A stretch of DNA of 64,000 nucleotides, from positions 96,001 through 160,000 of IMG/VR virus record IMGVR_UViG_3300020477_000014. One strand, written 5' to 3'. The DNA is from a virus. How positions within the stretch are numbered: position 1 is the stretch's first letter; every line of letters starts with the position of its first letter. Made by a program: the position numbers and the translations under genes. The notes beneath the pieces were generated by a model. It did not search any database. It was not told where the DNA came from and saw nothing but the letters and a program-made list of their open reading frames with translations. Positions 28,073 to 35,624 of this stretch are shown in pieces.

Positions 28073-28134
28073 TTTAATGATTGAAGTGGCAAATAACAGA
28101 CCATTTTTTAGACATCTTAAAAGGAACCATAATC

Positions 28135-31122
28135 ATGTCAGTGAAAAGTTTTAAATTTGTATCTCCTGGAGTGTTTATTCACGAAATAGATAATTCCTTT
28201 GTGCCGAAATCGGCGGAAGCCATTGGTCCCGTTGTTATCGGGAGGGCTGCCAGAGGGATATCAATGCAGCCGGTAAAGGTGGAGTCGTATTCTGAGTATG
28301 TTGAAATGTTCGGCGATACGGTACCTGGATTTGCCGGTGGTGACATTTCCCGAGATGGAAATTTCCAATCTCCGATGTATGGAACTTATGCTTCGAAGGC
28401 TTTTTTGCGGGCTAATGTGGCTCCATTAAATTATATTCGTCTTTTGGGACAACAAAGCACAAACGCTAGTGCCGAGGGCTACGCTGGGTGGCAAACTGAA
28501 AACAATGTTAATCCCCAACTAGACTCAAATGGTGGCGCCTATGGGATGTTCTTGTTTAAAAGCAGTAGTGCCACCCAAGGGAAACTCCTGGGTCAGGTAA
28601 ATTTGGGAGAAGGACGCCTAGGGGCTATCTTTTATGTTAACAATTCGGCATCGTTACAGTTGTCGGGCAACTTTATTTCGGGTACCCGAGGCGACTGGGA
28701 CGCGAACAACGCCGGCCAAGGAATCGGAACAGTTATCTATAATCACGATGAGGGTGACCGCCTTTTTACGGTTGTTCTTACTTCATCGAATGGAACGTAT
28801 AATGAGAAAGTCCAATTTAACTTTGATGACACTTCGGATTTTTACATCAGGAAGAGAATCAACACCAATCCTCAATTGACTAGTGCTCCTGGTTCCTTTT
28901 ATCCCACCAGTTCTCACAAGCCGTATTGGTTAGGGGCGACATATGATCAATTTTTACGCGAAGGTGGTTATATCCCGGGCAAAAATTTGTCCGCAGTTAT
29001 ATTGCCCTTGGCAAATACCGCAAGTACATCCATCGGACCTCATAACTTGCGCGAAGCATCTAGAGAGGCTGCGACTGGCTGGTTCGTTGGTCAAGATACT
29101 GGTCCTCACGGCACATCCTTCGTAATTCAACATTTAAAGAACAACAAACTATTTCGCCTTAAAGGTCGCGGTCACGGAGAATGGCTTCATAGGAATCTGA
29201 AAGTTTCTATTGAGAAAATACGAGTTTCTAATTCCTCTCTTACCGACTACGGTACATTTTCGGTAGTTTTGCGCAGCCTGCTGGACACAGATAACAATGT
29301 GCAGGTAGTTGAGAGATTCGATAACTGCACATTAGATCCATCTTCTCCTAATTTTGTTGCACGAAAGATCGGCGATATGTATCTTAAGTGGGATGACAAC
29401 AAGAAAACACTTCAACAGGTAGGGGAGTATCCTAATAATTCTCGCTTTGTGTATGTTGAATGTAATCCGGATGTGGAAGCCGGCGCAACAAACCCGGCGC
29501 TTTTGCCAGTAGGGTTTTTGGGAATTCCTAAATTTACCAACGTGACAGACCTCTTCGCCGGAGCAGTTGTGGGAGCAGGCGTCGGCAATAATTCTCTAGC
29601 GAACAAGTATATTTATTGGACCACCACCGCCGACGGGTTCATTGGACTAGGCATGCCGGGTACCCTCCCCAGGACACATCTCAACAGATCAATATTGAGC
29701 GGCGGCGCCGGGACAACCAACGTCGTAGCTGGCTCCGGACACCATTCGGCGTCTTTGATGGCATTTCCCTCTAGTTCTTATAGACAGAACGCCTCCGATG
29801 GTGGACTGTCAGATCCCACAAATGCTTATTGGGGATTTAGTACTACACGGACTGTCGACTCGAGTCGAAGTGATCATAGTGTTATGGATTTGGGGAACCT
29901 GCTTAAAAGCGACTTTAAGGATGATTGGTCGACCTATGATGCCGCGACTGACGGAATCGACCCATGGGACTTGATTTTCACCTTACAAGATCTTTCGGCT
30001 TCGGGAGGTGTTTCGGGAACAGGGACATATCATTGGGTTAGCGGCTCTCGACGAAATGAGCTAGCTGTCCCCTTGAACAAGACTTTGGAAAACGGATATG
30101 GACAATTTACTGCTCCCTTCTTCGGAGGGTTTGATGGATTTAATAATCGAGTACCCGATCCTCTTTATAATATGGGGATGAAAAATGCTACCGAAACCAA
30201 CAACTCTGCTTATTACACATGGAAGCGCGCAATTGACACCATAGCGGATCCTGAATATATTAATATGAACTTGTTGGCCGCGCCAGGATTAACTAAAAAT
30301 AGACTAACGAGACATATGATTAATGTATGTGAAGATCGCGCCGATGCCATGGCATTGGTTGATTTGGGAGATGTTTACAAGCCTCCACACGAAGAGTACT
30401 TCTCAAACAAGTCACAGCGTGTAGGTGCTGGACCCACACAAGTGGCCAAGAGCCTCAAAAATCGCGCGATTGATTCCAGTTATGGATGTACGTTCTATCC
30501 ATGGGTTCAGACTAGAGATGAGTCTTCCGGACAGTTAGTGTGGATCCCGCCCTCTGTGGCGATGATGGGGGTTCTTGCAAGCTCTCAAGCTAAATCGGAC
30601 GTTTGGTTTGCCCCTGCTGGGTTTAATCGCGGCGGATTAACTGATGGTGCGGCTGGAATTCCAATTATCAATGTGACTGAAAGGGTGGTATCTAAAGATC
30701 GAGACACACTATATGAAGCACGGATTAATCCAATTGCTTCTTTCCCCTCTACAGGGCTTGTAGTTTTCGGTCAAAAAACACTCCAGGAACGACAATCTGC
30801 GCTTGACAGAATTAATGTTCGACGACTTGTTATTTATCTTAAGAAGCAGATTTCTATCTTAGCATCACAAGTATTGTTTGAGCAGAATGTTCAAGCTACA
30901 TGGAATCGTTTCCGTGCTTTGGTTGAGCCTTTCTTGGCGAATGTAAAAGTTCAGTTTGGTATTACGGACTACAAGTTGATTCTTGATGAATCAACCACTA
31001 CTCCTGACCTTATTGACCAAAACATTATGTATGCCAAGATTATGGTTAAGCCTGCGCGCGCAATCGAGTATATTGCAATCGACTTCGTAGTTACCTCTAC
31101 TGGTGCTTCGTTTGACGATTGA
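28135..31122 (+). CDS. Tail sheath protein (T4 gp18-like), enlarged
   Basis: FVSPGVFIHEIDNS N-terminus, WFAPAGFNRG, RINPIASF, VVFGQKTLQ and SALDRINVRRL. Start 28135 preferred over 28081. Confidence 0.95.
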   Translation: MSVKSFKFVSPGVFIHEIDNSFVPKSAEAIGPVVIGRAARGISMQPVKVESYSEYVEMFGDTVPGFAGGDISRDGNFQSPMYGTYASKAFLRANVAPLNYIRLLGQQSTNASAEGYAGWQTENNVNPQLDSNGGAYGMFLFKSSSATQGKLLGQVNLGEGRLGAIFYVNNSASLQLSGNFISGTRGDWDANNAGQGIGTVIYNHDEGDRLFTVVLTSSNGTYNEKVQFNFDDTSDFYIRKRINTNPQLTSAPGSFYPTSSHKPYWLGATYDQFLREGGYIPGKNLSAVILPLANTASTSIGPHNLREASREAATGWFVGQDTGPHGTSFVIQHLKNNKLFRLKGRGHGEWLHRNLKVSIEKIRVSNSSLTDYGTFSVVLRSLLDTDNNVQVVERFDNCTLDPSSPNFVARKIGDMYLKWDDNKKTLQQVGEYPNNSRFVYVECNPDVEAGATNPALLPVGFLGIPKFTNVTDLFAGAVVGAGVGNNSLANKYIYWTTTADGFIGLGMPGTLPRTHLNRSILSGGAGTTNVVAGSGHHSASLMAFPSSSYRQNASDGGLSDPTNAYWGFSTTRTVDSSRSDHSVMDLGNLLKSDFKDDWSTYDAATDGIDPWDLIFTLQDLSASGGVSGTGTYHWVSGSRRNELAVPLNKTLENGYGQFTAPFFGGFDGFNNRVPDPLYNMGMKNATETNNSAYYTWKRAIDTIADPEYINMNLLAAPGLTKNRLTRHMINVCEDRADAMALVDLGDVYKPPHEEYFSNKSQRVGAGPTQVAKSLKNRAIDSSYGCTFYPWVQTRDESSGQLVWIPPSVAMMGVLASSQAKSDVWFAPAGFNRGGLTDGAAGIPIINVTERVVSKDRDTLYEARINPIASFPSTGLVVFGQKTLQERQSALDRINVRRLVIYLKKQISILASQVLFEQNVQATWNRFRALVEPFLANVKVQFGITDYKLILDESTTTPDLIDQNIMYAKIMVKPARAIEYIAIDFVVTSTGASFDD

Positions 31123-31191: not shown

Positions 31192-31785
31192 ATGGCATTC
31201 TGGTCAGAAAATTTCGGTCAAAATAGTACTTTGAAGGATCCGAAAAGAAAATTTAGATTTACTGTTGAATTTCAAGGAATTCAATCGGCACAAGGGGGTG
31301 CTACTTTGTGGTATGCCAAAACAGTCACAAAGCCCGGATTTACTATCAATACGGCAGAGCACAAATTTTTGAATCATACGTTCTTTTACCCAGGATCTGT
31401 TTCTTGGCAAGAGATTAGTTTAACGTTGGTGGACCCAGTTCAGCCTGATATGACCGCAACTCTATCCGATATCGTGGTAGCTAGTGGTTATACGCCGCCC
31501 ACTGATTCTACAACAGCTTCTTTGACTAGTATTTCTAAAGCCAAAGCAGCCACATCGTTGGGGACCGTGTATATTCAGCAGATAGATTCTAATGGTAATC
31601 CCATTGAAACATGGACTCTGTGGAACTCCTTTATTCAAGATCTTAAATTTGGAGACTTGGCATACGGAGACGACGAATTGAATGAACTTTCTCTGGTCCT
31701 TAAGTATGACTGGGCTCGAGTCGAAACAACCAATCCTTCAGTCGCCGTCAATGGTACACAGGGCACTGAATTTTTCAACGTATAA
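31192..31785 (+). CDS. Tail tube protein (T4 gp19-like)
   Basis: PKRKFRF, YPGSVSWQEISLTLVDP and FGDLAY...LVLKYDWA. Follows the sheath. Confidence 0.88.
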   Translation: MAFWSENFGQNSTLKDPKRKFRFTVEFQGIQSAQGGATLWYAKTVTKPGFTINTAEHKFLNHTFFYPGSVSWQEISLTLVDPVQPDMTATLSDIVVASGYTPPTDSTTASLTSISKAKAATSLGTVYIQQIDSNGNPIETWTLWNSFIQDLKFGDLAYGDDELNELSLVLKYDWARVETTNPSVAVNGTQGTEFFNV

Positions 31786-31810: not shown

Positions 31811-32677
31811 TTGTCACGTAATAAAGATAGGCTTGGTGGTGGGTTTTCCCATCCACACAATGCCCCAACTCCGCCCCAGCAGGTGAACTCTCCTGGCACA
31901 AGTGGTGGTTTTTCATTTGTGGTGCCTACAGAATTTGTAGAACTTCCTTCAAAGGGGAAGTTTTATTCCCCTGATCACCCCCTGTACAACCAGGAGACCG
32001 TCGAGGTTAAGCAAATGACAGCAAAGGAAGAGGATATGCTAACGTCTCGTTCTCTGTTAAAAAAGGGTGTTGCATTAGATCGAGTTCTCCAAAGTGTGAT
32101 AGTGGATAAAAACATTAACCCCGACACGCTGCTAATTGGAGATCGGAATGCGCTCATTGTGGCGATGCGAGTTTCTGGATATGGAAGCGACTACAATACG
32201 AGCGTAACTTGTCCCGCTTGTTCGGATGCCCAAAAATATGATTTTAACTTAAACGACATTACCATCTTTCACGGGGAAGATGAAATTGAAACTGGCGTGG
32301 TGCCGCTAGAAAATGGAATGTTTGGCACAGTATTGCCACAAAGCGAGCTTCATGTGGTTTTTCGATTGTTGAATGGTCATGACGAAAAGCGGATGAGTAA
32401 GCGTGTGGAAAATGCTCGCAAACGCAACCAACAAGAAAAGCTTGTAACATCTCAATTGCGTAATATTTTAGTTTCTGTAAATGGAGATGCATCTTCTGAG
32501 GCGCTCCAATATGTTATCGAAAACATGCCAAGTGGAGATGCGCGGCATTTGCGCCTAATGTATAAGCTTAGCGCACCAAACCTAGATATGACTCAGCACT
32601 TCAATTGCTCATCTTGTGGACACGAACAGGAATTGGAGGTTCCGCTGACTGCGGACTTTTTTTGGCCTGACCGATGA
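31811..32677 (+). CDS. Tail/baseplate assembly chaperone (gp26-like), short product
   Basis: TTG start after GAGGTG. VELPSKG, MTAKEEDML, IGDRNAL, CPAC...CSSC and a DFFWP end. Lies between tube and tape measure. Confidence 0.75.
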   Translation: MSRNKDRLGGGFSHPHNAPTPPQQVNSPGTSGGFSFVVPTEFVELPSKGKFYSPDHPLYNQETVEVKQMTAKEEDMLTSRSLLKKGVALDRVLQSVIVDKNINPDTLLIGDRNALIVAMRVSGYGSDYNTSVTCPACSDAQKYDFNLNDITIFHGEDEIETGVVPLENGMFGTVLPQSELHVVFRLLNGHDEKRMSKRVENARKRNQQEKLVTSQLRNILVSVNGDASSEALQYVIENMPSGDARHLRLMYKLSAPNLDMTQHFNCSSCGHEQELEVPLTADFFWPDR

Positions 32678-32909
32678 GTATACAGAAAATGTATACGAGC
32701 AATTTTTCTTCTTAAAATATTCAGGTGGCTGGTCGTTTTCGGAAGCCTATAATTTACCTATTGGGCTCCGCAAATGGTTTGTAGATAGGCTAATTAAGCA
32801 ACTAGAATCTGAACAAGAGATGGTTAAATCTGCCTCACGCGGCGGAAGTGGTCGGCGCCAAACTTTATCAGCGGTGAATCAACCTCCCACTCCACCTCAA
32901 TACAAGTAA
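32658..32909 (+). CDS. Start-less ORF, predicted frameshift extension of the tail chaperone (G/GT-like)
   Basis: The +1 frame reads FFGLTDEYTENVYEQFFFLKYSGGWSFSEAYNLPIGLRKWFVDRL...QYK*. It is closed upstream by TGA 32646-48 and has no ATG/GTG/TTG near its 5' end. T7 run at 32657-63. Confidence 0.75.
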   Translation, partial: FFGLTDEYTENVYEQFFFLKYSGGWSFSEAYNLPIGLRKWFVDRLIKQLESEQEMVKSASRGGSGRRQTLSAVNQPPTPPQYK

Positions 32910-32915
32910 CAGATG

Positions 32916-32936
32916 GGCGGTTTTACCGCCTTTTTT
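32916..32936 (+). terminator. Intrinsic terminator
   Basis: GGCGGT-TTT-ACCGCC-TTTTTT, located after the frameshift ORF rather than after the 32677 stop. Confidence 0.75.
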
Positions 32937-32975: not shown

Positions 32976-35624
32976 ATGGCAGACGATCCCGCAGCGCTCG
33001 GTAAAGCAGCCCAGGCATACCGCGCCCAAGCAGAAGCATTAAAGAGCCTAAATGATGCTTTAAAGGAAAACCAACAGGCACTGCAAGATCTTCTTGACCA
33101 GAAAAAGCTTAGCGCTGGATCTGTTACTGATGCCGAGGAAATTAATGCGCGAAAACTGGTTGAGTCGAAAAGAGAACAAATAAGACTACAGAAAGAGTTG
33201 TTAGACTCTCAGGAACTAAAAGCTTCCAGAGACGCGAATCAATTAATATTGGAACAGGACAAGATTGACAAACTTAATTCTCAAGCTGAAGCTGCTAACA
33301 ACATGTACACCAAGAGAGCTATTCAGCAGGCAGCAGATCGCGCCGCAGACGAGAGAAAAGAAAAAAGCATTCAATGGCAGATAGATAATGAACAAGAACT
33401 CACTGAAGAGGAAAAAAAGAAATTAGACATAGCTTTAAAGAATCAACAGATAGACCAAAAGAGGCCACAATATCTTCGTGAAGCTAAAGAACTTAGCAGT
33501 GGTATTGCACAAGTTTTTCAGTCATATGCTTCTCATCCGTTTTTTAATGTAGACAATATGCTTAAAATTACTGGCGCACTGCGGCAGCCTGGGCAACTCT
33601 TTAAGAGTCTTGGGACCGGCATAATTACTGGACTCCTTAATTCAGTAATCGGCTTGGTATTCGAGATAAATAAGTCTGAGGCTGCTTTTTTCAAAGCAAC
33701 ACGCGCTTCTAAGAGTTTTCAAGTATCTATGACAGAGGTATACAAGGTGGCGCGCCAAAACGTTGTCTCTCTTAAGGATTTCTATAAAGCAACTACAGAT
33801 TTGGTATCCACTTTTACTGATTTTACTCAAATTTCAACGCGAGCAGCACAATCTCTAGCTCTCACTACCTCCACTATGGTTCAATTGGGGCACAGTTCTC
33901 AAACCTTGGCGAAAGATCTGCAAATTCTGTCTGTGGGATTTGGTATGATACCACAGGAAGCCGAAAAAACTTTGCGCGAGTTAGATGCTTTTGCAACAGA
34001 CATAGGGGTTCCGCCCAGCCAACTTACTGAGCAATTTGCTACTATGGGAGACGGCTTGACGAAGTTGGGTAAAGATGGGGTGAGTGCTTTTAAGGAATTG
34101 GCGCGAGTATCGAAGATCACTGGTTTCGAAATGGGAAAAATCCTCCGTATGACTGATCGCTTTGACACTTTCGAAGGTGCCGCAACCGCGGCTGGTAAAC
34201 TGAATGCTGCTTTGGGTAGCAATTTTGTTAATGCCATGGACCTAATGGTTGAAACTGATCCTGTAAAAAGATTTGAAATGATGAGAGGATCATTGCTTGA
34301 TGCAGGGCTCGAGTTTGACAATATGTCCTATTATCAACGAAAGTTTATCGCTGAATCACTAGGTTTAGAAAGCGTGAGTGATTTAGCTGCCATGATGCGG
34401 GGCGATTTAGAGTCTCTAGATGCAGAAATCGGCAAAACATCTGCTGATTATGCCGAGATGGCAAAAAACGCACGTCTCTCTGCTAATTTCCAGGAAAGGC
34501 TAAACGCCATTATGCAAGGAATGATACCAATCTTGCGACCTCTTATCGAGGGCATTGAAATGCTTTTGTATAATTTTGAAGAGGGAACGAAATCACAAAG
34601 TGATTTCTCAGACGAAGCCCGGGCTCTTCAGCCGACTCTTAATAGTTTAGCCGGCGCCTTTAAGTTTTTTATTCAAGTTGCCAAAATTGCTATTGATTAT
34701 TGGCCATGGATAGTGGGCACTATGATCGCCATGAAAGCTGCCTCGCTTGGCGCCGCCTTTGGGCTGTGGTCCGTGAGTCCGGCTGTGGGAGGTATTACCG
34801 TTTCAATTGGTAAATTGGGAGCAGCCTTAACTACTTTGGGCGGCGCGGTTCTTGCTTCGGGAGGCACATTGCTGATCGGTCTCGGCGTTGTTGTTACTCT
34901 GTTGGGATCATTGGGGTATTTAGCTTCTTCTGTGGGAGAGGCGTTTCAGGGAATGGCGGCTCTTTTTAGTTCTTTTGATGGCGCCGGGTTGAGAGATCTT
35001 TCGTCAGCCGTGGGAGATGTTTCCAGTTTGGATTATACAACGGCTGCCGGGAATCTAACATTACTATCGGGCGCCATGGAAGATGTGTCGGCAGCCATGA
35101 TTGACTTAGGGGTGGGTGCTGGTGTCGGAGATATCTCCACATTGATATCGGACGCGTCTAATATGGACACCTCGCGATTTACTATTTTTGTAAATGAAAT
35201 GGTGCGCCTAAAAGACACTCTTAATGAATTGCCTGGCTTCGTGCACGATGACCCGACGGGCCTAGCCGCTAGCGCAGCCATTACAGCCCCTATTGCTGCT
35301 AGAGCTTCGGCAACCTTGTCTACAACACCGTTGCCGCACGGAACAGAGGCTCGAACAGATATTCAAAGAGCACTACAGACTCCCGCAGTGGCGGCGACGG
35401 TAGTATCTCTTTTGCATGCTCAGACTAAAATTCCAACTTCTGGAACTGACAAACCTCAAGAGATTGTTGTTAATGCTCACCTCCCCGTTCTCTTGGACGG
35501 TCAACAAATTGGCGCCGCGGCTCATACCTTTAGGCAGACCGTGCAACAACAAAGCAACACAGCGTTCGCGCTCGGCGGCGCCCCGCCGCCAGTGATGGTG
35601 ATGCCAAAAGGAAAAAATAACTAA
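32976..35624 (+). CDS. Tape measure protein
   Basis: 882 aa, Ala/Leu/Gly-rich helical, with a hydrophobic stretch in the C-terminal half. Follows the tube and chaperone. Confidence 0.8.
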   Translation: MADDPAALGKAAQAYRAQAEALKSLNDALKENQQALQDLLDQKKLSAGSVTDAEEINARKLVESKREQIRLQKELLDSQELKASRDANQLILEQDKIDKLNSQAEAANNMYTKRAIQQAADRAADERKEKSIQWQIDNEQELTEEEKKKLDIALKNQQIDQKRPQYLREAKELSSGIAQVFQSYASHPFFNVDNMLKITGALRQPGQLFKSLGTGIITGLLNSVIGLVFEINKSEAAFFKATRASKSFQVSMTEVYKVARQNVVSLKDFYKATTDLVSTFTDFTQISTRAAQSLALTTSTMVQLGHSSQTLAKDLQILSVGFGMIPQEAEKTLRELDAFATDIGVPPSQLTEQFATMGDGLTKLGKDGVSAFKELARVSKITGFEMGKILRMTDRFDTFEGAATAAGKLNAALGSNFVNAMDLMVETDPVKRFEMMRGSLLDAGLEFDNMSYYQRKFIAESLGLESVSDLAAMMRGDLESLDAEIGKTSADYAEMAKNARLSANFQERLNAIMQGMIPILRPLIEGIEMLLYNFEEGTKSQSDFSDEARALQPTLNSLAGAFKFFIQVAKIAIDYWPWIVGTMIAMKAASLGAAFGLWSVSPAVGGITVSIGKLGAALTTLGGAVLASGGTLLIGLGVVVTLLGSLGYLASSVGEAFQGMAALFSSFDGAGLRDLSSAVGDVSSLDYTTAAGNLTLLSGAMEDVSAAMIDLGVGAGVGDISTLISDASNMDTSRFTIFVNEMVRLKDTLNELPGFVHDDPTGLAASAAITAPIAARASATLSTTPLPHGTEARTDIQRALQTPAVAATVVSLLHAQTKIPTSGTDKPQEIVVNAHLPVLLDGQQIGAAAHTFRQTVQQQSNTAFALGGAPPPVMVMPKGKNN

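Follow-up and report, generated by a model that had tools for sequence, protein, structure and literature searches.

The locus described here raises the question of whether a phage gene of the T4 gp26/gp51 family ends at its own stop codon or is also extended, by a change of reading frame, into a conserved domain encoded by an overlapping open reading frame (ORF). The stretch of DNA analysed (the window) comprises 64,000 nucleotides, positions 96,001 to 160,000 of IMG/VR virus record IMGVR_UViG_3300020477_000014, and the gene in question, ORF1, lies on its plus strand at 31811–32677, starts with TTG and encodes 288 amino acids. The original prediction, made from the letters of the window, was of a +1 (or −2) programmed frameshift on a run of seven Ts (T7 run) near the 3′ end of ORF1, which would yield two forms of a tail-assembly chaperone in a T4-like jumbo phage. 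The genome that carries the window is rated 100% complete at 189,712 bp, just under the usual 200-kb limit, so that the label of jumbo phage does not strictly apply. The frameshift itself fares better: it is moderately probable, in our judgement, that ORF1 and the hidden ORF are one recoded gene, a tail-assembly chaperone pair of the λ G/GT type that is expressed via a ribosomal +1 slip.

Reading of the sequence agreed with everything that had been claimed for the end of ORF1. The gene closes with GAC TTT TTT TGG CCT GAC CGA TGA, in which the T7 run occupies 32657–32663 and the 0-frame stop TGA occupies 32675–32677, three codons 3′ of UGG. In the candidate shift site TTT TTT TGG C (32657–32666), the UUU codons at 32657–32659 and 32660–32662 would lie in the E- and P-sites and UGG (32663–32665) in the A-site, with GGC (32664–32666) as the codon reached by a +1 shift. 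From this GGC the +1 frame stays open for 81 codons and is closed by a TAA at 32907–32909; the resulting hidden ORF (32664–32909, plus strand), which begins GLTDEY and ends QYK, would add a ‘T-like’ domain to the short, ‘G-like’ form that ORF1 encodes. The predicted product is a fusion of 365 residues, made up of ORF1 residues 1–284 and the 81 amino acids of the hidden ORF, with the junction DFF-GLTDEY. The hidden ORF has no usable start of its own, as had also been noted: a TGA in its frame (32646–32648) lies 8 nt 5′ of the T7 run and, because only CTG CGG ACT TTT TTT stands between that TGA and GGC, no ATG, GTG or TTG is available upstream, the first canonical start in this frame being at about codon 52, past the conserved domain. 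At the ORF1 stop there is an ATGA, but in the wrong frame (−1) for the hidden ORF. In addition, a hairpin (7-pair stem, 5 GC pairs) plus T run that resembles an intrinsic terminator is located at 32915–32936 on the plus strand, 3′ of the hidden ORF instead of the ORF1 stop, as had been noted. Two further plus-strand elements precede the shift site, namely a Shine–Dalgarno-like GGAGG (32635–32639), 20 nt 5′ of the P-site UUU, and a GC-rich hairpin, TCCGC-TGACT-GCGGA (32641–32655), that ends 1 nt 5′ of the T7 run.

How far this arrangement is conserved was assessed in IMG/VR, where a profile search that used ORF1 together with three homologues from phages gave 80 loci with 43–61% amino acid identity; the counts that follow cover the 77 distinct loci having enough 3′ DNA. 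These data clearly show that the site and the hidden ORF are conserved far above chance. YTT_TGG is present in all 77 loci and the full T7 run in 72, and the variants of the site include TTT CTT TGG and TTC TTT TGG (two loci each). The 0-frame stop follows TGG by two or three codons in 76 loci and by five in the other one, the 0-frame tail being variable in sequence, and the +1 ORF extends 55–87 codons beyond this stop in every locus (mostly 2–13 codons for the −1 frame). The least-conserved codon position, as judged by the information content of the alignment columns, is in phase with frame 0 before the site and with frame +1 after it. Immediately after TGG, the 0-frame reading varies (WP, WS or WT) whereas the +1 reading GL is invariant; the alignment that had been expected to show a conserved run of seven Ts with DFFWP in frame 0 and FFGL in frame +1 thus does so for the run, in 72 of the 77 loci, and for GL, but not for the frame-0 residue after tryptophan. 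Codon choice at the site is also unusual. The two phenylalanine codons are TTT in 75/77 and 75/75 cases (background 67%), and the preceding aspartate codon is GAC in 64/66, against 34% elsewhere; as this codon is GAC and not GAT, the run has exactly seven Ts. The codon reached in the +1 frame is GGC in 67 loci. Further upstream, GGAGG is found between −45 and −11 in 74 loci (60 of them at −28 and 11 at −34), where 0.023 would be expected per interval, and the glutamate codon within it is GAG in 62/63 loci, compared with 40% elsewhere, which indicates selection at synonymous sites.

The same loci bear on the translation start of the hidden ORF. Relatives with a normal start codon would have counted against the original prediction, but no candidate start position is conserved: in 21 loci, the window included, the interval from the upstream +1-frame stop to GGN lacks ATG, GTG and TTG, and an ATG is found at codon 7 of the hidden domain in 35. 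The hidden domain itself has the motif GL..EY..VYEQFF.LKY.GGWSF.EAYNLP..LR.WF, with 14 invariant columns in 39 sequences, and its protein sequences fall into 1206 clusters at 90% identity (700 representatives at 50%), nearly all of which are called as orphans of 38–133 amino acids. Only two homologues fused in frame were found, the singleton P0004 and P0254. The latter, from a JGI metagenome contig (L099:779-1720), is a natural in-frame fusion of PF12322 with the hidden domain, 313 amino acids long and with no slippery site, and it shows that both parts can function within a single chain; its contig, at 2.2 kb, is too short to show a possible second, short paralogue.

Comparable arrangements occur in distant phages. 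Microcystis phage Mel-JY01 (AAC TTT TTT TGG CCT AAG TAA), Flavobacterium phage immuto (AGC TTT CTT TGG CCT) and the uncultured phage LR756508 (AAC TTT CTA TTC CCT) each have a recognisably homologous downstream ORF in the +1 frame, and Rhodothermus phage RM378 (TCC TTT TTT TGG) has a +1 ORF of 76 codons. The downstream ORFs of the Bacillus phages SP-15 (TTT TTT CAC) and HSE3 (TTC TTT CGT) are likewise in the +1 frame and match the hidden-domain hidden Markov model (HMM) with E values of 3e-3 and 3e-5 respectively, and neither site has a UGG. Two others have the downstream ORF in the −1 frame: Xanthomonas phage XacN1 (L087:3753-3759), with GCT TTT TTT ATT and hence a U_UUU_UUU heptamer, and LR756511 (L086:3769-3773), in which the ORF has its own ATG overlapping the stop (TAATG). 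XacN1 and LR756511 are jumbo phages, and the mode of expression of the second ORF differs among the family members examined. The occurrence of both +1 and −1 sites across distant phages suggests that the Phe-Phe dipeptide that ends the gp26-like domain has been used more than once as a place of shifting, and for shifts of either direction.

What kind of protein is extended in this way? ORF1 matches PF12322 (T4_baseplate) with 72.9 bits against a gathering cut-off of 24.5, over residues 42–285 and profile positions 6–219 of 219, and in a search of the whole 189.7-kb genome it is the sole PF12322 gene (73 bits). It also matches phrog_150 ‘baseplate hub’ (E 9e-22) and contains a zinc ribbon. An AlphaFold2 (AF2) model of the protein, with a predicted local distance difference test (pLDDT) score of 82, was matched in BFVD to gp26/gp51-like ‘baseplate hub’ proteins with E values down to 2e-19, and its best PDB match was the HK97 tail assembly chaperone 2ob9 (Foldseek E 0.1, probability 0.92). 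In a VIA-align comparison 2ob9 ranked first of 996 chains, its match covering residues 28–124 of ORF1, with 84/107 residues aligned, a root-mean-square deviation of 4.4 and a Z of 5.6, Z values below 8 being such as may mean just a common arrangement. Searches of PDB sequences with the ORF1 and hidden-domain profiles gave nothing meaningful. A review (PMC3004832) lists both T4 gp26 and T4 gp51 among the chaperones of hub assembly and describes gp51 as essential, absent from the particle and without an assigned function. The gp51 homologue of Acinetobacter phage vB_AbaM_Berthold (MN709128) is annotated as ‘tape measure protein assembly chaperone’, so a chaperone role for gp51 has already been assigned by at least one annotator and the idea is not wholly new.

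The neighbouring genes place ORF1 where a G/GT pair would be expected. Upstream on the plus strand are a tail sheath gene (28081–31122, 1013 amino acids; PF17482 Phage_sheath_1C, E 5e-10), the position of which matches the annotated sheath genes of Mel-JY01, immuto, HSE3 and SP-15, and a gp19-like tail tube gene (31192–31785, 197 amino acids; phrog_4542 tail tube protein, E 1e-22, with a weak PF06841 match). Downstream of ORF1 and the hidden ORF is a gene for a coiled-coil and hydrophobic protein of 882 amino acids (32976–35624, plus strand), which is kept at this position in the close loci and which we regard, from position and composition, as a putative tape-measure gene. In immuto, HSE3 and SP-15 the order is the same as in the window (sheath, tube, ORF1, hidden ORF, tape-measure-like gene) and the gene after the chaperone pair is annotated as tape measure. 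The 882-amino-acid protein has no Pfam or PHROG match and no BLAST similarity to annotated tape-measure genes. The earlier statement that the chaperone gene precedes the tape-measure gene is upheld as regards the shared gene order, and the tape-measure identity itself is positional. The core of the original prediction, that of a G/GT-like pair made by a shift of atypical direction at the T7 run, is supported by the conserved site and +1 ORF, by the tube and tape-measure-like neighbours and by the suggestive match to the HK97 chaperone fold. Beyond the tape-measure-like gene, between 35624 and 37165, lie two genes for proteins of 395 and 113 amino acids; neither has a Pfam match at an E value of 0.1 or better, and the smaller has a putative LysM-like look (..GDRFYNLANVYYG..YPGDVIEIP).

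In the mechanism that we favour, most ribosomes would read ORF1 through to its stop and produce the 288-residue short form. A minority, as we infer for both the event and its efficiency, would slip one base forward with peptidyl-tRNA-Phe on the UUU at 32660–32662 and UGG in the A-site; the tRNA-Phe would then re-pair on the overlapping UUU, GGC would be the next codon and a further 81 codons would be translated to give the 365-residue fusion (...DFF-GLTDEY...). By analogy with G/GT, binding of the tape-measure protein would fall to the gp26-like part that both forms share and recruitment of tail or hub subunits to the added domain, which is related to the C-terminal domain of gp51; both chaperone forms would be expected to be absent from the virion. 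What the 77 loci have in common with one another and with Mel-JY01, immuto and RM378 comes down to UUU_U or CUU_U and then GG, a minimal element that would permit P-site re-pairing on UUU with GGC read next. Re-pairing on an overlapping UUU is the basis of +1 shifting at the prfB site CUU_UGA_C and at the Ty1 site CUU_AGG_C, and the +1 A-site codon of Ty1 is also GGC, which is read by an abundant tRNA. The present site resembles both in that a P-site UUU or CUU can re-pair on UUU, and a Shine–Dalgarno-like element is conserved upstream of it; it differs in having no autoregulatory logic. The distance of GGAGG from the P-site codon is also beyond the known dnaX spacing rules, and no test that we ran explains it.

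Several points weigh against this reading. GGAGG lies 20 nt (26 nt in 11 loci) from the P-site codon, too far for an effect of the prfB type, where the Shine–Dalgarno sequence is 3 nt away, and the A-site codon UGG is a sense codon, neither a stop, as in prfB, nor a known rare codon. All seven Ts and the adjacent GC hairpin are strictly kept, which goes beyond what UUU_U needs and suits transcriptional slippage equally well. The fold match to HK97 gp10 reaches only Z 5.6 and is suggestive, the tape-measure gene next door is putative, and both the fusion and the shifting are predictions from sequence.

The constraint on the whole run and on the hairpin leads directly to the main rival, a different route to the same protein that the original prediction had not considered. 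Here one of the seven Us would be dropped by RNA polymerase during transcription, with help from the nascent GC hairpin, so that mRNA with six Us would encode the fusion; we consider this a serious alternative, though rather unlikely. Together with the T7 run, the hairpin was flagged as resembling a terminator, its minimum free energy (MFE) in the window is −8.1 kcal/mol, and the 22 nt 5′ of the run have a mean MFE in the clade of −5.5 kcal/mol, against −1.3 for other stretches of ORF1 and −4.1 for shuffled sequences, with 61% of loci at −5 kcal/mol or lower compared with 35% of shuffles. The run is kept at exactly seven in 72 of the 77 loci, down to the wobble base of the first phenylalanine codon, and there is a documented case in which one nucleotide next to a stretch of U and C is lost in a hairpin-dependent manner (Penno et al. 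2015, as summarised in PMC5009743). However, the support for the hairpin is MFE alone: covariation does not exceed the control, the 4-bp stem being paired in 82% of cases against 80.8% in shuffles, and RNAalifold found no consensus structure between −45 and +44 of the 77 loci. In Mel-JY01 the T7 run is present without a hairpin of similar stability (−0.4 kcal/mol), and none was seen beside the RM378 run when its sequence was read, unfolded. Moreover, the +1 ORF is kept in immuto, LR756508 and three of the contig loci (L060, L046 and L055) with runs of only three or four Ts, on which homopolymer realignment is implausible; for those phages, these variants rule out homopolymer-dependent mechanisms and a −2 shift alike. 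Seven Ts are also short for efficient bacterial slippage, high efficiency being reported at runs of nine (PMC5009743), and the conserved GGAGG and UGG/GGC context points to the ribosome. The documented case is the stem-loop-mediated slippage of IS630 of Roseiflexus, which has in common with the present site a GC-rich hairpin immediately 5′ of a slippage motif rich in U; loss of one nucleotide would align the downstream ORF, but the stem here is shorter (4–5 bp) and not present in every relative, the motif is U7 and not U5C5, and relatives without the homopolymer still keep the ORF.

The same variants bear on the direction of a ribosomal shift, which had been given as +1 or −2. A −2 slip, in which peptidyl-tRNA-Phe moves back two bases and inserts an extra phenylalanine (junction DFFFGL), reaches the same frame as +1, and the T7 run permits perfect re-pairing two bases back. 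In TTC TTT TGG (L046 and L055), however, it would land on UCU, and in TTT CTT TGG (immuto and L060) a leucine tRNA would land on UUC, whereas +1 lands on UUU in both; the +1 half of the claim is thus favoured and a −2 shift is most unlikely. That the hidden ORF is instead a separate small gene, translated by internal initiation or termination–reinitiation with no fusion, as may apply to cyanophage gp51 with its own ATG, is how gene callers treat it when they list it as a protein of 38–133 amino acids, and it accords with the ATG at or just after the upstream stop in LR756511 and most P-SSM2-like cyanophages and with the ATG at domain codon 7 in 35 of the 77 loci. We nevertheless regard it as very unlikely: in the window the first canonical start comes at about codon 52, upstream starts are missing from 21 loci, and candidate starts do not keep to a conserved position; in addition, the invariant Y6 and the mostly acidic residue 5 precede the codon-7 ATG, the codons for the invariant G1 and L2 come before the 0-frame stop, and the ATGA noted above is out of frame (−1). 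Finally, homopolymer runs are prone to error and the singleton metagenomic protein P0004 reads through in frame, so one might ask whether a sequencing or assembly error, or a pseudogene, conceals a single ORF of 365 codons. The probability of this is negligible: the same frame relation is found in 77 distinct loci that were assembled independently and in the genomes of isolates that came from four laboratories, the distance to the 0-frame stop is two or three codons (five in one locus), and two in-frame forms stand against more than 1200 clusters of split forms. Such conservation across related loci shows that the frame arrangement is not an error.

If ORF1 and the hidden ORF are read as one recoded gene, the identity of the added domain becomes of interest. 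The model of the hidden domain is a helical hairpin (pLDDT 75), and its nearest named ESM Atlas clusters are Gp51_C (0.90) and DUF6760 (0.89). PF20546 DUF6760 matches the hidden domain of the window with 15.9 bits, below the gathering threshold of 27, and sub-threshold matches are seen in 26/39 of its relatives (best E 1.7e-4), which suggests a distant relationship at most. A Foldseek search of BFVD found the 53-residue ‘Gp51’ of Prochlorococcus phage P-HM1 (probability 0.97, template modelling score 0.80), and also small ORFs of two phages that have a PF12322 gene, as well as one in Leptospira phage LE4 that has a neighbouring accession. Direct comparison of the hidden domain with T4 gp51 was negative, both by hhalign (with the domain and with the full-length fusion) and by HMM searches, and the C-terminal 45 positions of phrog_150 gave no match to the hidden domain of the window. 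The link is made through cyanophage gp51 as an intermediate: the hidden-domain HMM matches gp51 of P-SSM2, the gene for which directly follows gp26, with E 4e-5 within the locus and as the sole genome-wide match (E 0.025), P-SSM2 gp51 aligns to residues 207–246 of T4 gp51 (E 5e-6), and both proteins match phrog_634 and the C-terminal end of phrog_150. We therefore consider it quite likely that the hidden domain is equivalent to Gp51_C (PF28602), the C-terminal domain of T4 gp51.

In T4 itself (NC_000866, our locus L089), gene 26 (115802–116428) and gene 51 (116479–117228) encode paralogues of 208 and 249 amino acids, both of which PF12322 matches end to end. The end of T4 gp26 (..EFFELL*) corresponds in position to the shift site, and gp51 runs on in frame with a C-terminal extension of 48 amino acids, the Pfam domain Gp51_C. 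Given the relationship of this domain to the hidden domain, T4 probably has both forms, and gp26 and gp51 are probably its short and long chaperone forms encoded as separate genes. ORF1 thus shares its family, PF12322, with gp26 and gp51, but the T4 genes are two, without recoding, and do not lie next to the tube gene.

The corresponding gp26/gp51 junction was also read in T4-like cyanophages, in a set (L100–L183; for example L101:1360-1569) made up of the isolates P-SSM2, S-CAM8, S-RIM8 and Sf-CH8 and of 80 IMG/VR contigs. It has the form NNT TTT TTC GNN-stop in 84/84 loci, so that the C-terminus of gp26 is ..FF(A/G/V)* and a T_TTT_TTC heptamer is conserved there; the base 5′ of the run is T in every junction variant listed, while the residue that it helps to encode varies (serine, alanine or asparagine). 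The gp51 ORF is in the −1 frame and open from the run, and each of the four isolates read has a GAGGG 9–10 nt upstream. In most loci an ATG follows the gp26 stop at a distance of 2 nt, and three of the four isolates (S-CAM8, S-RIM8 and Sf-CH8) have no ATG before the conserved N-terminal part of gp51, which in S-CAM8 is not annotated at all. From these sequence features, the junction is probably an unannotated −1 programmed frameshift giving a gp26–gp51 fusion, possibly together with stop–start coupling.

How does the proposed system compare with known ones? It is like gpG/gpGT of λ and the conserved chaperone frameshift of long-tailed phages (Levin 1993; Xu, Hendrix & Duda 2004; reviewed in PMC5009743) in that two overlapping ORFs lie directly 5′ of a tape-measure (here tape-measure-like) gene, with a slippery site a few codons before the first stop and a downstream ORF that lacks a start, in the short and long chaperone forms that we propose, and in the weak resemblance of the N-terminal domain of ORF1 to the fold of the HK97 gpG homologue. 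It is unlike it in direction and signal, being +1 on UUU_UGG, whereas the λ shift is −1 on G_GGA_AAG and the typical G/GT shift is −1 on an X_XXY_YYZ heptamer. The proteins differ as well: the 288-residue ORF1 product of the gp26/gp51 family exceeds the 107-residue HK97 chaperone chain, the proteins of the window have no sequence similarity to gpG or gpT, and the chaperone role is predicted. What is new with respect to G/GT is therefore the +1 direction, the signal and the protein family, and what is shared is the position, the overlap, the startless second ORF and the two forms. Exceptions in direction are known within the G/GT class (PMC5009743), and one of them is close to the present case, since a +1 tail chaperone frameshift has been proposed for the haloarchaeal myovirus HSTV-2, the only likely +1 case that the same review mentions; it is likewise a probable +1 shift for a myovirus tail chaperone, but with an archaeal host. 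No report of recoding in genes of the gp26/gp51 family was found in the searchable literature, subscription-only papers lying outside that search.

G/GT frameshifting is among the most widely conserved recoding events known, and the standard review describes it as conserved among long-tailed phages ‘except T4’, naming T4 as the sole exception (PMC5009743). The present locus links the two, since it has a gp26/gp51-type protein at the G/GT position that is extended by a conserved trans-frame domain. In this context, we incline slightly towards the wider view that the gp26/gp51 family is the T4-superfamily equivalent of λ G/GT, an ancestral tape-measure/hub chaperone whose long form is made differently in each lineage. 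The marine clade, Mel-JY01, immuto and RM378 would use a +1 shift at UUU_UGG, with SP-15 and HSE3 having the +1 ORF without UGG; T4-like cyanophages, and perhaps XacN1, would use −1 slippage on U_UUU_UUC and/or stop–start coupling; and T4 itself would use a duplicated in-frame gene, gp51 beside gp26.

If this view is correct, it would explain the standing of T4 as the only long-tailed phage without G-T frameshifting and would give T4 gp26 and gp51 a testable function, as short and long chaperone forms that act on the tape measure gp29. It would also draw attention to the junction of gp26 and gp51 in T4-like cyanophages, where a −1 frameshift, as yet unannotated, is probable. Bacterial +1 signals, few of which are known, would gain a new class in which UUU_UGG is combined with a distant GGAGG and the A-site codon is a sense codon. 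In addition, annotations would be corrected in a very abundant marine phage group, in which more than 1200 clusters of the hidden ORF now stand as small orphan ORFs with arbitrary starts.

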